DNA of 64,000 nucleotides from an uncultured delta proteobacterium (GTDB lineage Bacteria > Desulfobacterota > Binatia > Binatales > Binataceae). A program made the position numbers and the translations under genes. Below the pieces are notes generated by a model. It searched no databases. It saw only the letters and a list, made by a program, of their open reading frames with translations, and had not been told where the DNA came from. Below are positions 7,975 to 57,340 of this stretch, in pieces (positions within the stretch are counted from its first letter, which is position 1; each line of letters starts with the position of its first letter). The stretch covers positions 238,922-302,921 of the forward strand of contig CAVVMA010000018.1 in the NCBI GenBank assembly GCA_963749215.1, read 5' to 3'.

Positions 7975-8122
7975 CCCTCACCCGGCCGGCGAGAACGCTG
8001 GCCGTCCTCTCCCGCAAAAGAGCGGGCGAGGTGTTAGGAGCCAGGAGAGCAAAGCCTCGTATGCCTTCTCCCGGTTGCGGGAGAGGTCGTGCGGGCCGGC
8101 ACGGCCCGCGCGGATGAGGGTG
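7975..8122. repeat. Structured intergenic repeat, inverted pair
   Basis: CCCTCACCCGGCCGGCGAGAACGCTGGCCGTCCTCTCCCGCAAAAGAGCGGGCGAGG ... CCTTCTCCCGGTTGCGGGAGAGGTCGTGCGGGCCGGCACGGCCCGCGCGGATGAGGGTG. It occupies the first 34 nt of the 8089 ORF. Confidence 0.75.
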
Positions 8123-10392: not shown

Positions 10393-10480
10393 CCCTCACC
10401 CGCCGGTCGTCTTGGCAGCAAGACGCCCGCCGACCTCTCCCGGCTTGCGCCTGCGGACCAGGCCGCAGGCGCGGGAGAGG
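10393..10480. repeat. Structured intergenic repeat, single unit
   Basis: CCCTCACCCGCCGG...GCCGACCTCTCCCGGCTTGCGCCTGCGGACCAGGCCGCAGGCGCGGGAGAGG, with a nested hairpin in the loop. Confidence 0.7.
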
Positions 10481-20647: not shown

Positions 20648-20737
20648 TGGGAGCCACCAGCAGAACAGGTTCGCGCAAGTCGTAGCGCGACACAATGGCG
20701 ACGGCGCTGGTGCTTGAGAACCGCAAACGCAAAGGGT

Positions 20738-20847
20738 TCCCCCTTCCCGCCCTTAGGGAAGGGGGACAGGGGGTTAGGTTTCTGGAAGTCCCGAGCGCGG
20801 CAGAATACCTCTCCCCCGGCCCCTCTCCCAAAAAAGGAGAGGGGAGC
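20738..20847. repeat. Structured intergenic repeat, variant subfamily
   Basis: CCCCCTTCCCGCCCTTAGGGAAGGGGG...GGGGTTAGGTTTC...CCCCTCTCCCAAAAAAGGAGAGGGG. Confidence 0.7.
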
Positions 20848-20910
20848 CCGATGCTAGGTGTTCTGGGGAGGACCGGCGTGCCGCCGGTCTGTGCTCCCCC
20901 GAGTCAGGTG

Positions 20911-38424: not shown

Positions 38425-39465
38425 ATGCCTGACTCCGACGGCGGCAACGAACCTTCCAGACGACATCGCGCGCCAACGGCTCGCGCGTTGAATACGAGCT
38501 GCAACTTTATTACTGGCTCAAGCTGATCCGCTCGTTCGAAGAGCGCGTCTCGCGGCTCCATCGCCAGAACAAAATCCTGGGCGGGGTCTACTCGGGCGCC
38601 GGACAGGAAGCGATCGTCACGGGAATCTGCGCGCCGCTCCGCGACGGCGATTTCGTCGCGCCGCTCCATCGCGACCTCGGCGTTTTCCTGATTCGCGGCG
38701 TCGATCCGGGCCGCCTGATGGCCCAACTGATGGGCAAGGAGACCGGGTTGTCGCGCGGCAAGGACTCCTTCCTGCACGCCGGCGACCTGGAGCGCGGAAT
38801 ATTCGGCTCGACCTCGATGCTCGGCTCGTCGCTGCCGGTCGCGGTCGGCGCGGCGCTCAAGTTCCAGATCAAAAAGGAAAAGCGCGTCGCGGTCGCATTC
38901 TTTGGCGAGGGCGCGGCCTCGCGCGGCGACGTGCACGAGGCGATGAACTTCGCCGGCGTGCGCAAGCTGCCGGTGATCTTCGTCTGCGAAAACAACCGCT
39001 ACGCCTACTCGACGCCGGTGGAAAAACAGATGGCGATCGAGGACGTTGCCGACCGGGCCACTCGCGTACGGATTCAAGGGGCATGTCTGCTCGGGCAACG
39101 ATCTGCTCGAGGTGCTGGAAACCAGCGAACGCGTGATCGAGCGGGTGCGCGAGAGCGGCGGTCCGTCGCTGATCGAATGTAAGACCTACCGCTATCGCGG
39201 GCACAGCGAGCACGATCCGGCGCTCTATCGCGAGAAGGAGGAATTGCTGCAGTGGGAGAGCCGCGACCCGATTCCGCGTTTCGAGTTCTACCTGGAAAAG
39301 AAAGGCCGCGAGCTGCCGCGGCTGCGCGAGCAGATCGACGAGCGCGTGCAGCGGGTCGTGCAGCAGGCGGTGGACTTCGCCGAGCAGAGCCCGTTTCCCG
39401 AACCTAAAGAAGCACTTGAAGATCTGTATGCAACCCCAGTCGGCCGCGCGGCAGCCAGGAGCTAA
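38425..39465 (+). pseudogene. 2-oxoacid (acetoin/pyruvate/branched-chain) dehydrogenase E1 alpha subunit with two frame changes (~38433-38487 and ~39058)
   Basis: The only ATG (38425) is in frame 1. The body (EYELQLYYWLKLIRSFEERV...GAGQEA...FFGEGAASRGDVHEAMNFA...PVIFVCENNRYA) is in frame 0, which has no start codon. The tail (LAYGFKGHVCSGNDLLEV...TYRYRGHSEHD) is in frame 1. Confidence 0.8.
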
Positions 39466-39486
39466 AGCCGCAGAAAACCAACGCTG

Positions 39487-39545
39487 ATGGAAGAAACCTA
39501 TATCAAGGCGATCAATCAGGCGCTGCACGAAGAGATGCGGCGCGA
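39487..39545 (+). repeat. Duplicate copy of the first 59 nt of the E1beta gene (58/59 identical to 39708-39766)
   Basis: ATGGAAGA(A/G)ACCTATATCAAGGCGATCAATCAGGCGCTGCACGAAGAGATGCGGCGCGA occurs twice, 221 nt apart. Confidence 0.95.
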
Positions 39546-39662
39546 TTCTGTTCCCTCTCCCATGGTCTGGGAGAGGGCCAGGGTGAGGGTCCGTAAGAAG
39601 GTTTTGATTTTTTCCCGTCGGACCCTCACCCCAACCCTCTCCCGGCTCGCGGGAGAGGGCTT
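39546..39662. repeat. Structured repeat element inserted between the two copies of the E1beta 5' end
   Basis: CCCTCTCCCATGGTCTGGGAGAGGGCCAGGGTGAGGG...CCCTCACCCCAACCCTCTCCCGGCTCGCGGGAGAGGG. Shares TTCTGTTCCCTCTCCC with the copy at 57286. Confidence 0.85.
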
Positions 39663-39707
39663 CCAGAGCGCCCTCGCCGACAAATGCTCGGCGTTTGCGT
39701 AGCGGCG

Positions 39708-40688
39708 ATGGAAGAGACCTATATCAAGGCGATCAATCAGGCGCTGCACGAAGAGATGCGGCGCGACGAGAATGTTCTGATGATCGGCGAAGACGTGGCA
39801 GAGCTCGGCGGCGCGTTCAAGGTTACCGAAGGCTTGCTCGAAGCCTTCGGCGAAGACCGCGTGATCGATACGCCGATCTCGGAGACCCTGATCGTCGGCG
39901 CCGGCATCGGCGCGGCCGTGATGGGGATGCGGCCGGTGCTCGAGATGCAGTTCGGCGATTTCATTTCGTGCGCCTTCGATCAGATCGTCAACAGCGCCGC
40001 GACGCTGCGCTACCGGCACGGCGGACGAGCGTCGTGTCCGATCGTGATTCGCGCACCGTCGGGTGCCGGCGTCCACGGCGCGATTTTCCATTCGCAGAAC
40101 ACCGAGGCCTGGTTTGCGCGCGTGCCGGGATTGAAGGTCGTCGCGCCGGCCACTGCCTACGACGCCAAGGGGCTGCTCAAGAGCGCGATCCGCGACGACG
40201 ATCCGGTTATCTTCCTCGAGCACAAGCGGCTTTACCGCAGTATCAAGGAGGACCTGCCCGAGGGTGAGTTCACCGCCCCGATCGGCGTGGCCGAAGTCAG
40301 GCGCGAGGGGCGCGACCTTTCGATAATCACTTACGGCGGCACGCTTCATCAGGCGCTCGACGCGGCGCGAATCGTCGAGAAGGAAGACTCGCTCCGGGTT
40401 GAAGTGCTCGACCTGCGCACGCTGCTGCCGCTCGATCGCGAGGCGATTCTTGCCACTGCGCGCAAGACCGGAAAAGTGCTGATCGTGCACGAGGACCGGC
40501 TGACCGGCGGGATCGGCGGCGAAGTCGCGGCGATAATCGCAGAGCACGCTTTCGGCTTTCTGGACGGCCCGATTCGCCGGCTTGCGGCGGCGGATACGCA
40601 TAACGCGTTCAGCCCGCCGCTGGAGGAATTCATCCTGCCCAACACCAACAAGATCGTCGAAGCGGCCCGCAGCCTGGCGGCTTACTGA
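39708..40688 (+). CDS. 2-oxoacid dehydrogenase E1 beta subunit
   Basis: MEETYIKAINQALHEEMRRDENVLMIGEDV...GAFKVTEGL...RVIDTPISE...APSGAG...HSQ...PGLKVVAP. Start taken at the second copy of the duplicated ATG. Confidence 0.9.
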   Translation: MEETYIKAINQALHEEMRRDENVLMIGEDVAELGGAFKVTEGLLEAFGEDRVIDTPISETLIVGAGIGAAVMGMRPVLEMQFGDFISCAFDQIVNSAATLRYRHGGRASCPIVIRAPSGAGVHGAIFHSQNTEAWFARVPGLKVVAPATAYDAKGLLKSAIRDDDPVIFLEHKRLYRSIKEDLPEGEFTAPIGVAEVRREGRDLSIITYGGTLHQALDAARIVEKEDSLRVEVLDLRTLLPLDREAILATARKTGKVLIVHEDRLTGGIGGEVAAIIAEHAFGFLDGPIRRLAAADTHNAFSPPLEEFILPNTNKIVEAARSLAAY

Positions 40689-40689
40689 G

Positions 40690-42072
40690 ATGGCGCTCGA
40701 CGTGGTGATGCCTCAGATGGGCGAGAGCGTGGTCGAGGGCACCGTCGCCAAGTGGCTCGTGAAAGAAGGCGACCGCGTCAGGGAAGACCAGCCGCTCGCG
40801 GAAATTTCGACCGACAAGGTCGATACCGAAATTCCTTCGCCGGGCGCGGGAGTGATCGCCAGGATCTTGATAGGCGAGGGCGAGACGGTCGCGGTGGGCG
40901 CGCGGCTGGCGGTGATCGAGTCGGTGGCGGGCGCTGCCGCTTCGACCGCTCCGGCCGAATCAGCGGCGCCGCCACCAACGCCGGCGCCGCCGCCATCGCA
41001 GCGTCGTGTGAGTGCGTCGCCGCCGGACCGCCCAGCGGATCGCAGTGATGCGCAGCCGCCGCCGACGGCGACGGCTGCGCGTCCCGGCGCAGAGCCCGCG
41101 CGTGCGCCGGAGGCGGTGCGCCGCTACTCGCCGGTAGTCCTCAAGATGGCCTCCGAACTCGGGATCGATCTCGCCCGTGTTGACGGCACCGGAATCGACG
41201 GCCGTGTCACCCGCCGCGACGTGGAGCGCTACCTTGAGTCGGTTCAGCAGGGTGCCGTCGCGCCTTCGGCGCCATCGCCGCGCGATGGCGCGGCTACCAA
41301 GGCCGCGGCCGGCTCGGCGCCGATCCGACCCGCGGCTGCGCCCTTCAAGCCGCCGATCTACGAGCCACGCGAAGGCAACGTAGTCGAGCCGTTTTCGCGC
41401 CGTCGCAAGGTGATCGCGGAGCACATGGTCTTTTCCAAGACGCATGCTCCGCACGTCGGCACGCTGGCGGAGGTGGACATGACGCGCGTAGCGCGCCTGC
41501 GCGAAGTGCACAAGGTGGCGTTCCAGGCGAGCGAGGGGTTCGCGCTCACGATTTTGCCGCTGGTCGCCGCAGCGACGGTGCGCGCGCTCAAGGAATTTCC
41601 GCGGATGAACGCGTCGGTGGCTGGCGACGCGCTCGTGATCCGCAGGGCGATCAATCTTGGAATCGCGGTCGACACGGAGGAGGGGCTGCTCGTCCCGGTA
41701 GTCAAGTCGGCGGAGGGAATGTCGGTGGTCGGCCTGGCCCGCGAGATCGAGAATCTGCGGCGGAAGGTCGCGGATAAGCGCATCACCGCGGACGATCTTG
41801 CCGGGGGAAGTTTTACCCTTTCCAATCCCGGCCGCGAAGGCAACGCCTATGGGTTTGCGATTATCAATCAGCCGCAGGTCGGAATTCTCAGGATGGGCGA
41901 ACTGAAAAAACGCCCGGTTGTAGTCGAGGCGGACGGCGAGGATGCGATCGCGATCCGCACCATGATGTACCTCGCGCTCTCGTACGACCATCGCGTCGTC
42001 GACGGCGTACTCGGGAATCGCTTCCTGTATCGCGTCGCGCGGATTCTCGAAGCAGGAGACCTTTCCCTATGA
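40690..42072 (+). CDS. Dihydrolipoamide acyltransferase (E2), single lipoyl domain
   Basis: Lipoyl domain [20 protein letters not shown]...[14 protein letters not shown]. Pro/Ala linker. [26 protein letters not shown]. Catalytic [10 protein letters not shown]. Confidence 0.9.
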
Positions 42073-43076
42073 CTATGAAAGCGATGGCCGTACATACCCC
42101 GGCGCCGATCGAAACCAACCCGCTGAGCGCGATCGAAGTTCCGGTACCGGAGCCGCGCGCGGGCGAGATTCTGATCCGGGTTCTCACCTGCGGCGTATGC
42201 CGGACCGACCTGCATGTCGCGGAGGGCGACCTGCCGCCGCGGTTGCCGCGAGTGATTCCCGGTCATGAAATTGTCGGCGTGGTCGAGCGATGCGGCGACG
42301 GATGCAAGCGCTTTCGGGCCGGCAATCGGGTCGGAATCGCGTGGCTGCGCGAGACCTGCGGCGCATGCCTCTATTGTCGGCGCGAGCGCGAGAATCTCTG
42401 CCCGAATGCGCGCTTCACCGGCTACGACCATGACGGCGGCTACGCCGAAGCTGCGATTGCCCGCGAGGACTTTGTCTATCCGATTCCCGCCTCGCTTGGT
42501 GACGAAGAAGCCGCGCCGCTGCTCTGCGCGGGGATCATCGGCTACCGCGCGATCAAGCGCGCCTCAGTCCAGCCCGGCTCGACCGTGGGACTGTATGGTT
42601 TCGGCGGCTCAGCCCATATCGCGATCCAGGTGCTGCGTCATTGGGGATGCCGCGTGCTGGTGATGAGCCGCGGCGACAAGCATCGCGAGCTCGCCCAGAG
42701 CCTCGGCGCCGATTGGATCGGCGAGGCGCGCGAACGGCCTCCTAGGCTCCTCGATGCGGCGATTTTGTTCGCGCCGGCCGGCGACCTCGTGCTGCCTGCG
42801 CTCGAAGCTCTCGATCGGGGCGGAATTCTCGCGATCGCCGGAATCTACCTCAGCCCGATTCCGCAGCTCGACTACGAGCGCCATCTTTTCTACGAGAAGG
42901 AACTCCGTAGCGTGACCGCGAACACGCGAGTCGACGGCGAGGAGTTCATGAAAGTCGCCGGGGAGATTCCGATTCGCACCCATACCGCGGCGTTCGGCCT
43001 CGGCGAGGCGAATGTGGCGCTGAACATGCTCAAGCACGACGAGCTCAAGGGCGCCGCAGTGCTGCGGATCAAATAG
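42069..43076 (+). CDS. Zinc-dependent alcohol dehydrogenase (MDR family)
   Basis: [14 protein letters not shown]...PGHEIVGVV...[15 protein letters not shown]...[10 protein letters not shown]. Has a 4-nt overlap with E2. Confidence 0.9.
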
Positions 43077-47582: not shown

Positions 47583-49938
47583 TCAATGGCAGCTGATTAC
47601 TTCGATCGGTCCGGGAACGGCGGTGATGGTCTGGACGATAAACGCGTTGTTGTCGTCACCCGAAATCGATACCTGTTGGGCGCTGTCCGTGCCGGCCTTG
47701 AGATCTGAGAATCCACTCACGGTCGGCAGCGTCCCCTGCAGCAGGTGAGTCGAGTTGTCCGACGCGTTGATGGCGGCGATCTCGACCGTGCCGTCACTGC
47801 GCGAGTAGCCGCTGTCAGCGGAAAAGTTGCTCCCAACGGTCTCGGTGGTAAACCCGCCGCTGCCGCTCGCGTCGCCAAAGTCGGCGAAGGCCAGCATGCT
47901 CGAGCTGGAACCAACTTCATTCGCTCCCACATCAACTACGGTTGGATCGAGCAAGCCCAGGAAGAACCCGTTCACAATGGCGAAGCCGTCGGCGCTCGTA
48001 CCCATATGGAGGGTGAAAGGACCCGACCAGCTTTCAGCGCCGTTCGACGAGTACACGCCCACTCCTCCGGGAAGGTTGCCGTCGTTGACGCCGATGCTGC
48101 TCCACCCAACGGCGAGGTTGGAGCCGGAAGCAACTATACAAGGCGATCCCGAGAAGCTGCTGGTAATCAGTGACGAAGCGCCGAAGCTAACGCCACCATT
48201 CGTCGAAACGTTCAGATTTATCCCACCCGCTCCCGCGGCGGAGACGACATAAACGTTGGTGGGTCCGCCGTTGGGTCCGTCAACCGCCACCTGCGGAGCG
48301 AGCGGCACGATCCCGGGGATTCGCCACCGAGGTTCTGAATGGTTCCGGGGGCCGCTGCCGTTGAATGTCACGTAATCGATCGAAAGTGCAATGCTGGTCT
48401 TGTTTTCCAGACGATATGGACGTTTCCCATCGAATCGTAGTCGGACGATGGAGTCACGTTGCTCGATGTAAGGGTCGCTGGTGATGTTGTAGGGCGAGCC
48501 CCAGGTCGCACCGTTGTAGAGAGGATGCCTTGGATCGAGGAAAGGCTGCCACCTGTACCTGCCGCGACAAAGAGCTTGTTGCCGGAACTCCGATAGCCGG
48601 GCGCCGCGCCGCGTGAGGAGACCAACACGGGCGACGTGCAAGTGCTGAACAGCGGAGCCGGCGATGGCGTCGCGGTTGGGGTCGCGCTACAGTGGCGGTC
48701 GAAGTCGCCGTCGGCGTGGGAGTTGGACTGGCGATCACAGTCGGACTTGCAGTCGGAGAGGCGGTCGGCGTGCCGGTCGGAGTGGCGGCGGTCGGAGTCG
48801 TGGCGGGAGTCGAAGTGACGGCCGGGGTCGGCGTGGCGGCGGCGGGCGGAGTCGGCGTCTGGATCGCAAACGGCGGGGTCGGCGTAGGCGTCGGGGTCAG
48901 GGTTGGGCTCTGAGTAGGTGTCGGGGTCGGCGTAGGCGTCGGGGTCGAGATGGCGGGCGTCGGGGTTGGTGTGGCTGTCGCGCAGCAAATCTCGAGCGCG
49001 ATACCCTGCGGCCCCTTGAGCTTGGTCTTCGCCCCGGCCACCATGACCAGCGGCTTTACGTTGCCGCCGGCGCCGGATGGATAGACGGTGGCGCTGTTGT
49101 TGCCGTGGTTCGCGACGAAGATCTGCCCGCTGCGACAATCCACCGCGATGCCGAAAGGATTGCTGAGCTTGGTCTTGGGCCCGGCGATGATCGCGCTCGG
49201 GGATTCGTTCAGCTTGCCGGTGCCCGCCCTCAGTGGCTGGTAGACCGTCACGCTGTTGTTCCCGTTGTTCGCCACATCGATATCGTCGCCGGGCGCCAGG
49301 GCGATCCCAGTGGGTTTGTGGAGTTTGGTTTTGTTGCCGATGATGGTGGCGATCGGCGATACATTGCCGTTGACCCCGCGCCCATAGATCGTCACGCTGT
49401 TGTTCCCGTTGTTGGCCACGTAGATGTTCAGCGCCGTATCCAGCGCGATACCGAAGGGAGACTTCAGACCCGTGCTGGCGCCCGCGATGGTGATCACCGG
49501 CACTGCGTCGCCGTGGCTATCCGGCGCATAGACCGTGACGCTGTCATTCTTGCTATTGGCGACGTAGATGAAGCCGAGACAGTCGACCGCGATGCCCAGC
49601 GGCGAAGACAGCCCGGTGCTGGGGCCCACGATGGTAACAATCGGCGAGACGTTGCCATTGGTTTCCGCCCCATAGATGGTGACGCTGTTCGCGCTGGCAT
49701 TGGCCACGTAGAGGTTGTCGTTTTGGTCGACCGCGATTCCGTAGGGCTGATCGAGCCCGGTGTTGGAGCCGTCGATCAACTCGACGGGCGGTACATTGCC
49801 GTTCGCACCCGCCGCATAGCCGGTCACGACGTTGCTGTGATTGGTTACAAAAAATTGGCTGACGGTCGCGCCGCGGGCATCGGTGGGGCGCCCACCGACC
49901 ACGGCGATTAGCAGGAGGAGGGTGAAGGTGATCTTCAT
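47583..49938 (-). pseudogene. Large secreted protein: NHL-repeat propeller + ~100-aa Thr/Pro linker + BNR/sialidase-like propeller, with two -1 frame changes (~48690 and ~48408)
   Basis: Signal peptide [16 protein letters not shown]. Six to seven NHL-like repeats (P.GIAVD....YVAN...NSVTVY). TPTPTP linker. Then CTSPVLVSS...MGNVHIVW, STNGGVSF, SSNGAESW, SRSDGTVE (Asp-box-like), spread over ORFs 48454..50094, 48368..49138 and 47583..48641. Confidence 0.7.
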
Positions 49939-57168: not shown

Positions 57169-57340
57169 GCCCTCACCCGCGCGTCACGGCGTTTGCAGGA
57201 AAAGAGCAAACGCCGCTCCGCTCGCCCTCTCCCGGAGGGAGAGGGATTAACAGTGGCAAGCGCGCAATATGGTCGCAGCAGCGACTTCTGTTCCCTCTCC
57301 CTCCGGGAGAGGGCGAGCCGCGAAGCGGCGCGGGTGAGGG
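57169..57340. repeat. Structured intergenic repeat, full composite copy
   Basis: CCCTCACCC...CCCTCTCCCGGAGGGAGAGGG...CCCTCTCCCTCCGGGAGAGGG...GGGTGAGGG: outer arms complementary, two inner hairpins. Confidence 0.85.

Follow-up and report, generated by a model that had tools for sequence, protein, structure and literature searches.

How can a gene inside a tightly packed operon be translated when a structured repeat stands directly in front of it? This question is raised by the junction of two E1 subunit genes in the window, a stretch of 64,000 nucleotides from an uncultured soil bacterium of the Binataceae. On the + strand, the gene for the E1 alpha subunit of pyruvate-dehydrogenase type (38425-39465, stop codon TAA at 39463-39465; NCBIfam TIGR03182 on both halves) is followed by those for the E1 beta subunit of 326 amino acids (39708-40688; NCBIfam NF006667, 367 bits at a cut-off of 321) and the E2 acyltransferase (40690-42072), the latter starting 1 nt past the E1beta stop. 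The E2 stop is overlapped by a Zn-ADH gene (42069-43076). The abutting and overlapping E1beta, E2 and ADH genes show that the rest of the operon is tightly coupled, and in 80 relatives the gap between E1alpha and E1beta mostly amounts to 0-21 nt or is replaced by an overlap. As written, the frame of E1alpha is broken by single-base insertions at 38458, 38464 and about 39060, and a tblastn search with the E1alpha of L001, the closest relative with an empty site, placed one frame change near 39060. Since the extra bases are absent from short-read unitigs and from the independent NCBI metagenome contig L081, we regard them as assembly errors. The E1alpha start is preceded by a Shine-Dalgarno-like GGAG motif that is common to relatives.

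A repeat search of the window revealed a 60-nt direct repeat at 39486-39545 (copy 1) and 39707-39766 (copy 2, which forms the working 5' end of E1beta), both on the + strand, with a spacing of 221 nt and 59 of 60 positions identical. The sole mismatch, GAA/GAG at 39495/39716, is synonymous. An earlier note on this DNA had described the first 59 nt of E1beta as present twice; this is correct, and the repeat grows to 60 nt once the G preceding each ATG is counted. The 161 nt between the copies comprise an inverted pair of CCCTCTCCC/GGGAGAGGG/GGGTGAGGG motifs and 47 unique nt. Copy 1 occupies the ancestral position, as had been supposed: the 3' end of E1alpha and the 20-nt spacer behind it (39466-39485, +, followed by the G at 39486) align to L001, where the spacer measures 17 nt, and relative to outgroups the structure is indeed an insertion. 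No Shine-Dalgarno motif was found in this spacer, nor before the start codon of copy 1 (ATG1) or of copy 2 (ATG2) in any allele. Import of the E1alpha 3' end from an L001-like lineage was considered and rejected, since from end to end the window's E1alpha is nearer to the sister clade; the L001/L239 type is confined to its last ~25 nt, and these look ancestral.

The possibility of an assembly artefact, which the earlier note had itself named, could be dismissed. Although the assembly of the window contains many single-base insertions relative to short reads, three assemblies and the unitigs of two studies (2025 soil, 2017 peat) are identical across every junction, and homologous structures occur in other genomes, which makes an artefact practically impossible. 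The identical structure is found in L081 (98.8% identity over 5,965 bp), the right junction is present in the JGI contig L214 (99.88% identity), and all junctions are spanned by the short-read unitigs X1 (39516-39746), X3 (39273-39653) and X5 (39610-39859). As a 50-mer is common to both copies, an empty allele in near-identical strains would escape detection with these unitigs (k=31).

Its sequence blocks place the inserted element among the intrastrand triplex motif (TM/PIT) repeats, a class already known, of which it represents the inverted-pair form; the statement that a repeat-family element lies between the copies is thereby confirmed. PIT elements were reportedly described by Hoyne et al. 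in 2000, and TM/PIT repeats presumably overlap the 'boxC' repeats of E. coli. Exact TM blocks lie at 39553-39589 and, inverted, at 39623-39659, and their strings match those of TMECO in Table 1 of Holder et al. 2015 (PMC4666352). The left unit (39546-39589, +) begins with TTCTGTT and continues with the three-block motif CCCTCTCCC-ATGGTCT-GGGAGAGGG-CCA-GGGTGAGGG; TTCTGTT is also found 5' of a motif copy at 57286. In computed folds it is followed by a central TCCG/CGGA stem with an A+T-rich loop of 25 nt (39590-39622, +), behind which stands the inverted right unit CCCTCACCC-CAA-CCCTCTCCC-GGCTCGC-GGGAGAGGG (39623-39659, +). The pair forms a 41-nt imperfect inverted repeat and is predicted to fold into a very stable RNA hairpin (z = -7.4, Watson-Crick folding only), whereas the complete insert of 161 nt lacks terminal inverted repeats, its right end being the 47-nt unique filler (39660-39706, +). 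Searches of the insert gave only sub-threshold hairpin look-alikes in Rfam and no promoter; one weak terminator-like site is located inside copy 1.

The motif pattern occurs four times in the window and not at all in shuffles. A second exact TM pair lies at 57225-57313 and variant copies at 1447-1658, 7975-8075 and 10393-10480, all intergenic and without an ORF of the kind discussed below; unitig joints at these other loci, searched for empty sites, yielded paralogue noise. At least 120 metagenome contigs matched the motif in a scan, and the right unit is multi-copy in the source metagenomes, where the unitigs over 39605-39658 are 4 to 8 times deeper and differ in their flanks. The filler and the left half of the insert show single-copy depth there, which speaks against a donor locus for the insert. 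Compared with its flanks, the insert has only about half the unitig depth, through either polymorphism or coverage bias. No match to the filler was found elsewhere in the 64-kb window or in the collected loci. Its derivation from an E1alpha tail was also rejected, as it bears no likeness to the E1alpha tails of 80 relatives, and a weak likeness to the tail of L236 past TAG-CGSCG is unconvincing.

The next question concerns the age of the insertion, which the earlier note had implied to be recent. None of 80 species-representative relatives carries the structure at the E1alpha-E1beta junction. However, both junctions (GCGA|TTCTGTT and GTAGCGGC|GATG) are common to the window, L241, L242 and the group of L236, L234, L237 and L238, and L243 retains only the right half of the insert, with the shared right junction. 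Between the window and these sister Binataceae lineages E1beta is 9-10% divergent in nucleotides. In a neighbour-joining tree of E1beta the carriers and two empty alleles form one clade with 90% bootstrap, the window being sister to the rest and the empty L001 lying outside. The alleles are those that were found through E1beta, a small sample with four carrier types. These comparisons show the insertion to be old, and it is best taken as a single event in the ancestor shared by a small clade of Binataceae. Copy 1 has decayed in the sister alleles: it differs from copy 2 at 5 of 60 positions in L241, at 10 in L236, mostly non-synonymously, and at ~20 in L242. L236 has a homologous filler, whereas that of L241 and L243 is shorter by 12 nt and that of L242 has been replaced. 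A further MITE of ~178 nt (TIR AGAGCNTTGC, ~11-nt duplication) is nested inside the element in L236 and L242, both orientations being seen.

The near-identity of the two copies in the window, the native context of the upstream one and the empty sites in 80 species-level relatives would all suit a recent insertion whose upstream copy acts as a decoy, capturing the old initiation region and lowering or disturbing the translation of E1beta. This is very improbable in view of the junctions shared with diverged lineages, of the window allele, which shows a polymorphism of its own at 39578 and is present in both soil and peat, sampled at an interval of years, and of the fixed end of the reading frame described below. 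We instead ascribe the close match of the copies in the window to a probable later homogenisation, occurring now and then through gene conversion or through recombination with an empty allele. The two empty alleles of the clade, L240 and L245, are nested among carriers, though support is modest, at 73% for the grouping of L240 with L242 and 28% at the node below L245. The junction of L245, TAG-CGGCG-ATG, is identical to what precedes copy 2 in every carrier. This suggests a precise loss of the insert via the repeats, but the nesting could instead reflect recombination between lineages.

Just one of the three frames through the insert is open, namely that of the chimeric ORF which the earlier note had recognised and which is confirmed here (39487-39702, +; 71 codons and TAG at 39700-39702, within the filler). 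Its start codon and first 20 codons are duplicated E1beta sequence. From the same start, this ORF extends over 67 codons in L241, 132 in L236 and 134 in L242, and in every carrier it runs without internal stop and ends exactly 5 nt 5' of the E1beta ATG. The spacing from ATG1 to ATG2 is 221, 209, 404 and 410 nt, each being 2 mod 3. The frame survives a 12-nt deletion in the filler, a 12-nt deletion in copy 1 and the nested MITE, whichever way round it lies; where 1 nt is deleted, in L242, the replaced filler compensates for it, and a TAA again stands 5 nt before the ATG. In dinucleotide shuffles the chance of an open frame was 0.025 for L236, 0.06 for L242 and 0.42 for the window, tests that are not independent because the alleles share ancestry. 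Metatranscriptome contigs extend only to 39508.

An ORF that is open and ends at a fixed point in all carriers, despite indels, a MITE and a compensated frameshift, argues for a bridge delivering ribosomes to E1beta and not for a competitor, and we therefore abandon the designation as a decoy. We infer that its frame and end point are under selection and the peptide is not. The conserved leader that the earlier note had envisaged in relatives is thus found with respect to the frame and not with respect to the peptide. A functional peptide or regulatory leader as the product of the ORF would agree with its retention in all carriers, yet this is highly unlikely: lengths vary between 67 and 134 codons, the sequence is not conserved, part of the L242 ORF is read in another frame, and a protein search with the ORF returned no family, only the query itself, and no homologues outside the locus.

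More weight has to be given to the view that the ORF is incidental, a frame inherited within a G+C-rich repeat with few stops, and that E1beta initiates by itself at 39708 or 39684. The high shuffle probability for the window and the common ancestry of the carriers are in line with this. Gene callers are split between these two starts. An in-frame ATG or GTG, 24 nt 5' of ATG2 in the window (ATG at 39684, in the filler), L236 and L241, could be an independent start. On the other hand, the longer alleles have low open-frame probabilities, all indels are multiples of three or compensated, the nested MITE is open either way round, L242 keeps its stop 5 nt before the ATG with a different filler, and neither candidate start has a Shine-Dalgarno motif. 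We consider an incidental frame fairly unlikely. The region of ATG2 is predicted by folding to be mostly paired.

From the observed structure, age, distribution and frame conservation, it appears rather probable that a TM pair with ~47 further nt entered the junction of a PDH-type operon with duplication of the E1beta start, and that the resulting ORF bridges translational coupling across the hairpin. Copy 1 holds the native position just past the E1alpha stop, and ribosomes leaving E1alpha would for this reason restart there. They would translate the otherwise meaningless ORF through the ~107-nt hairpin, terminate at the TAG that lies 5 nt ahead of the genuine E1beta start codon and initiate anew there, and coupling would be preserved with the ORF as a bridge across the insert. 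The two copies would occasionally be homogenised and would also allow the insert to be lost precisely. When the window is compared with L241, the TM blocks show no change in 62 nt, compared with 22.5% at third codon positions of E1beta; substitutions are concentrated in the central stem-loop (39590-39622) and the small loops, and the right unit (39623-39659) is almost invariant in every carrier allele. As the blocks themselves are conserved, the element may serve a function that the bridging model leaves unexplained.

The origin of the duplication has to be considered separately. Transposase target-site duplications are of fixed length, 2-14 bp, and the statement of the earlier note that the present one is too long for this mechanism stands with 60 bp; the replication- or recombination-based mechanism that it proposed is still a plausible candidate. 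Inspection of the two junctions gave no convincing microhomology, and a search for an attL/attR scar found no integrase, cargo or remnants between the repeats, just 161 non-coding nt. A large tandem duplication followed by internal deletion was rejected, since it needs a second 161-nt copy nearby and none exists in the 64 kb. In a single step, the 161-nt segment might have been inserted at a break with 60-nt staggered ends, or copied in through a replication template switch resuming 60 nt upstream, either of which would have created duplication and ORF at once. The left end of the repeat unit (TTCTGTT) directly abuts copy 1, unrelated TM pairs have long unique flanking duplications at L158 (41 nt, 100%) and L099 (~104-111 nt, 93%), and the nested MITE has its ~11-nt duplication, all of which render this origin a tentative option. 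It is weakened by the E. coli TM pair that has no flanking duplication, by the lack of a donor copy of the filler in the window, the loci and the unitig depth of the source metagenomes, and by the coincidence that the duplication would have to start exactly 1 nt before an ATG. Moreover, long duplications do not hold as a general rule: they were found at 3 of 31 TM pairs in a first set (9 of 620 control positions), at none of 16 further TM loci in scans of viral contigs and not at the hrpB-mrcB pair of E. coli; over all TM pairs surveyed the figure is ~3 of 60. At hrpB-mrcB, one E. coli strain is without the TM pair and another has a single collapsed hairpin.

A two-step course explains both the repeat start 1 nt before the ATG and the fact that the sole open frame is the one in use. 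Here the element would first have settled in the spacer just ahead of the ATG, intergenic DNA being where it usually resides, and would have broken the coupling; subsequent duplication of 60 nt of the gene start to the upstream side would have been selected because coupling was thereby restored. TM loci are recognised as hot spots at which local rearrangements arise (PMC4666352). However, no intermediate allele is present among 11 cluster members and 80 relatives, and this course, which calls for a double template switch or for something no less complex, is somewhat doubtful. That TM palindromes in general spread or rearrange via a break or replication process duplicating tens of target bases (41, 60 and ~105 nt), and that a gene start caught in such a duplication is co-opted as a ribosome bridge, is a speculative idea to which we assign a low probability. 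If true, it would offer a general route for structured repeats into coupled operons without silencing them, and a first mechanistic handle on the movement of a very widespread repeat class.

TM/PIT repeats are present in hundreds of bacterial genomes. The locus provides a dated natural series of alleles, comprising empty sites, filled ones, filled ones that also contain the nested MITE in one or the other orientation, rearranged ones and some that have apparently become empty again, across which reading frame and end point are conserved and sequence is not. Comparison of the alleles in this way yields evidence for selection on the coupling of translation across a hairpin that was inserted. For annotation, the lesson is that near-identical flanking repeats need not imply a recent insertion.

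Compared with known systems, the element corresponds to TM/TMECO (PMC4666352) in its blocks (CCCTCTCCC, a loop, GGGAGAGGG, 3 nt, GGGTGAGGG), in the inverted pair of ~100 nt as at five E. coli K-12 loci, and in being multi-copy, widespread across phyla and associated with local genome rearrangement. It differs by its place in an operon junction, the ORF read-through and the 60-nt target duplication, none of which is described for the family. REPIN/REP sequences, which are mobilised by RAYT, likewise consist of two inverted hairpin units ~100 nt apart, numerous and non-coding. Their IS200/IS605-type mobilisation proceeds without target duplication, in contrast to the 60 nt observed here. With MITEs the insert shares its small, non-autonomous and palindromic nature and the direct repeat of target sequence on both sides, and the nested element of L236 and L242 fits this kind. 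However, 60 bp is several-fold above any transposase stagger, an unrelated 47-nt filler is included, and instead of a fixed short duplication we find 60 nt here and none, 41 or ~104 nt at other TM pairs. According to PMC12548453, MIRUs have been proposed to insert at start codons with their internal ORF coupled to the downstream gene; in these operon-junction repeats (Supply et al. 1997, as cited there) the ORF stop abuts the downstream start, and insertion therefore costs little expression. In the same way, all four carrier allele types have an intercistronic ORF ending at the downstream start. Whereas MIRUs carry their own ORF with a 4-nt overlap with that start, the ORF found here is not intrinsic to the repeat unit and is absent from the other TM copies of the window; its start codon is a duplicated piece of the target gene, its stop lies 5 nt 5' of the ATG, and for a repeat there is a G+C-rich palindrome unrelated to MIRUs. 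The MIRU idea would thus be extended to an unrelated repeat class and phylum, with duplication of the downstream gene's start as a new route to a bridging ORF. In synthetic bicistronic designs and natural leader ORFs, too, a short upstream ORF ending beside a start codon overcomes RNA structure and an absent Shine-Dalgarno motif; those arrangements are designed or simple, whereas the present one has arisen by duplication around a mobile repeat.

At the junction of the E1alpha (38425..39465) and E1beta (39708..40688) genes, a repeat search of the window revealed a direct repeat of 60 nt (39486-39545 and 39707-39766; copy 1 and copy 2), identical at 59/60 positions, the sole mismatch being a synonymous GAA/GAG. 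Each copy consists of the G preceding the ATG and nucleotides 1-59 of E1beta. The 161 nt between them comprise TTCTGTT directly after copy 1, a left unit CCCTCTCCC-ATGGTCT-GGGAGAGGG-CCA-GGGTGAGGG, a TCCG/CGGA stem closing a 25-nt loop, an inverted unit CCCTCACCC-CAA-CCCTCTCCC-GGCTCGC-GGGAGAGGG and a filler of 47 nt (39660-39706) up to copy 2. The ATG of copy 1 (ATG1, 39487) opens an ORF of 71 codons that closes with TAG at 39700-39702, 5 nt before the ATG of copy 2 (ATG2, 39708); the other two of the three frames are interrupted within the insert of the window. By NCBIfam, the operon encodes a PDH-type E1alpha, E1beta (NF006667, with a score above the cut-off), an E2 and an alcohol dehydrogenase (ADH) of the Zn-dependent type.

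The duplication and the inserted repeat had been described in an earlier note (as 59 nt with 58/59 matches), together with the chimeric 71-aa ORF, and all were confirmed. An assembly artefact, which that note had considered, is contradicted by independent data. An NCBI metagenome contig (L081; 98.8% identity over 5,965 bp) is identical from 39153 to 39926 and contains the whole structure, and a JGI contig (L214, 99.88% identical) begins within the element and continues into E1beta. Both junctions are spanned by Logan unitigs of short-read runs from two studies, one on soil (2025) and one on peat (2017) (X1 39516-39746, X3 39273-39653, X5 39610-39859); X1 and X3 share a C>T variant at 39578, in an internal loop of the hairpin. 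Compared to the unitigs and L081, the window carries single extra bases at 38458, 38464, ~39060, 6948, 10457/8, 12579-82, 12834-6, 13040, 13224 and 13649, none of them within the repeat and insert structure. The first three break the E1alpha frame; these bases, which account for the apparent frameshifts, look like indel errors of long-read assembly and not like pseudogenisation. The unitigs carrying the insert (39516-39746; X1, X2, X4 and X5) reach about half the depth of the flanks (in X1 3.3 versus 5.2-6.9, with 8.8 for the shared 50-mer). This fits a population of which about half is empty at this site, and a coverage bias at the hairpin is equally possible.

E1beta places the host in Candidatus Binataceae. 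In none of 80 species-representative relatives was a duplication or the motif of the insert found at the E1alpha-E1beta junction, where the genes mostly overlap or are separated by 0-21 nt. In the closest of them (L001), the E1alpha 3' end and spacer align to the sequence upstream of copy 1, so copy 1 stands in the ancestral context, as the earlier note had proposed. An allele series was obtained from contigs of the E1beta 90%-identity protein cluster (n=11 members). In L241, the copies match at 55/60 positions, the filler is 12 nt shorter and the ORF has 67 codons. In L236 (likewise L234, L237 and L238), a MITE of ~178 nt is nested in the left hairpin, within its loop; the copies match at 50/60, with mostly non-synonymous changes in copy 1, the 47-nt filler is homologous and the ORF has 132 codons. 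L242 shows the L236-type MITE in opposite orientation; its copy 1 has lost 12 nt and its central loop 1 nt, the filler is replaced and the ORF has 134 codons. In L243 only the right half is present, with a filler 12 nt shorter and unrelated DNA upstream to the contig end. L240 and L245 are empty (TAG, 5 nt, ATG), and L239 and L244 have other spacers; the empty sites which the earlier note had suggested looking for were found here as well as in the 80 relatives.

L241, L236 and the window share the junctions GCGA|TTCTGTT and GTAGCGGC|GATG; L242 retains the left one and L243, without the left half, the right one. A neighbour-joining tree (E1beta nt 61-978) groups the window with all carriers and two empty alleles in one clade (90% bootstrap), leaving L001 outside; the window is sister to the remaining members (100%) at 9-10% divergence. 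Shared junctions and tree together show one old insertion event; the recent insertion implied earlier is not supported, the same junctions being present in sister alleles this divergent. As the event is older than this divergence, and as L236 and L242 have a decayed copy 1, the 59/60 identity in the window implies that its copies would have been homogenised after insertion; copy 2 could have been the source of a gene conversion, or copy 1 could have provided the homology for recombination with an empty allele. The empty alleles L240 and L245 are nested among the carriers with modest bootstrap support, and the L245 junction TAG-CGGCG-ATG equals the sequence before copy 2 in every carrier. Both observations fit a recombination between the repeats that removed the insert precisely; the alternative is that lineages exchanged alleles.

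The nested MITE (L236 2681-2862, L242 ~2660-2838, L243 ~700-750) has the TIR AGAGCNTTGC, a core GATTCCTCGC...GTCATTCCGAGCG and a duplication of ~11 nt, CCATCGTCTGG. L242 and L243 share one orientation and L236 has the other (L242 versus L236: 88% over 179 nt, minus strand), which reflects either an in-place inversion or a repeated hit. In L243, the unrelated DNA (1-700) takes the place of E1alpha, copy 1 and the element's left half and includes a lysine-rich ORF of 113 aa; the break point falls within the MITE, and only 886 nt of contig precede E1beta. The more distant L244 (91% E1beta identity) carries a different 229-nt insert at the same junction (1662-1890) with a CATTCTGAGCG...GAAGAATC motif. 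The E1alpha-E1beta junction seems to have been targeted repeatedly.

The ORF of each of the four carrier types begins with the duplicated ATG, is free of internal stops and terminates exactly 5 nt before the ATG of E1beta; the ATG-to-ATG distances (221, 209, 404 and 410 nt) all equal 2 mod 3. The frame survives in-frame deletions and a net insertion of 183 nt that is open in both orientations; in L242 a frameshift is compensated by the different filler, with TAA again 5 nt before the ATG. In dinucleotide shuffles, the frame stays open with probabilities of 0.42 (window), 0.025 (L236) and 0.06 (L242). The peptide sequence is not conserved across the alleles, and a protein search found no homologues outside this locus. 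The ORF, previously read as a decoy, is therefore most likely a selected bridging ORF. A GGAG is conserved upstream of the E1alpha start and occurs in no allele before ATG1 or ATG2, E1beta/E2 and E2/ADH abut or overlap, and the ATG2 region is mostly paired in the predicted fold. According to a recent review (PMC12548453), MIRUs are repeats inserting at the start codon, and their internal ORF, being coupled to the gene, keeps the cost of insertion low. From these observations we infer that the bridging ORF may deliver ribosomes to E1beta, carrying them through the hairpin. RNA contigs at the locus extend only to 39508. An in-frame ATG at 39684, 24 nt 5' of the E1beta ATG, would add eight residues (MLGVCVAA); the codon is ATG in L236, GTG in L241 and absent in L243, and gene callers differ in choosing between these starts.

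The three-block motif of the insert is the intrastrand triplex motif (TM) TMECO of Holder et al. 2015, which follows earlier work on PIT elements (Hoyne et al. 2000); Holder et al. tie triplex motifs to local genome instability (PMC4666352). A pattern scan of metagenome contigs matched at least 120 of them, so the TM family is ubiquitous. According to unitigs of the source metagenomes, the right unit is multi-copy and the filler and left half are single-copy. The element RNA is predicted to fold into a near-perfect hairpin of ~107 nt (z = -7.4); an Rfam search yielded only sub-threshold hairpin look-alikes, and neither a promoter nor a convincing terminator is present in the insert. When the window is compared with L241, the 62 nt of motif blocks and central stem are unchanged (39553-39659; nine-base blocks); the loops and linkers differ by ~17% and E1beta third codon positions by 22.5%. 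Ribosome delivery does not account for this invariance; the motif may be under constraint of its own, or other copies may have homogenised it.

Elsewhere in the window, a cluster at 57170-57340 has, in another arrangement, CCCTCACCC and GGGTGAGGG on either side of two exact CCCTCTCCC/GGGAGAGGG hairpins, and shares the 16-mer TTCTGTTCCCTCTCCC with 39546-39561. Variant members at 1447-1658, 7975-8075 and 10393-10480 consist of CCCTCACCC, a hairpin linker of 20-30 nt, CCTCTCCC, a loop and GGGAGAGG, and a further G/C-block palindrome lies at 20720-20850; the repeat search found no long flanking duplication at these four sites. Five tandem copies of a ~144-nt unit (49024-49716, 61-71% identical) are probably a repeat-domain coding region.

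Among ~60 TM pairs surveyed, unique long flanking duplications were found at only two others, on unrelated metagenome contigs with a TM pair and short fillers between duplications of unique sequence: L158 (3759-3799/4008-4048; 41 nt, 100%, intergenic) and L099 (541-651/877-987; about 104-111 nt, 93%, covering tandem repeats of a 21-mer and a hicB-like gene at its 3' end). Control positions showed none except tandem repeats, and the E. coli hrpB-mrcB pair has none. At this locus, one E. coli strain without the pair has a different spacer sequence, and in E. coli 07_3636 the two units of K-12 are collapsed to one CCCTCTCCC-TGT-GGGAGAGGG hairpin, the 'palindrome effect' noted by Holder et al. (PMC4666352). 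No donor for the 47-nt filler was found in the source metagenomes, in the window and loci or in the E1alpha tails of the relatives. An origin in one step, by insertion at a 60-nt staggered break or by template switch, is simpler and agrees with the other long duplications; about equally plausible is an intergenic insertion followed by a compensatory duplication restoring coupling, which better accounts for a repeat starting 1 nt before the ATG.

The element is a member of a known repeat class, and what is new is the way the bridging ORF was built, together with the allele series documenting it. The inverted two-unit arrangement is common to the window element and TMECO at five E. coli K-12 loci (PMC4666352), and the function suggested here for the bridging ORF resembles that proposed for MIRUs.
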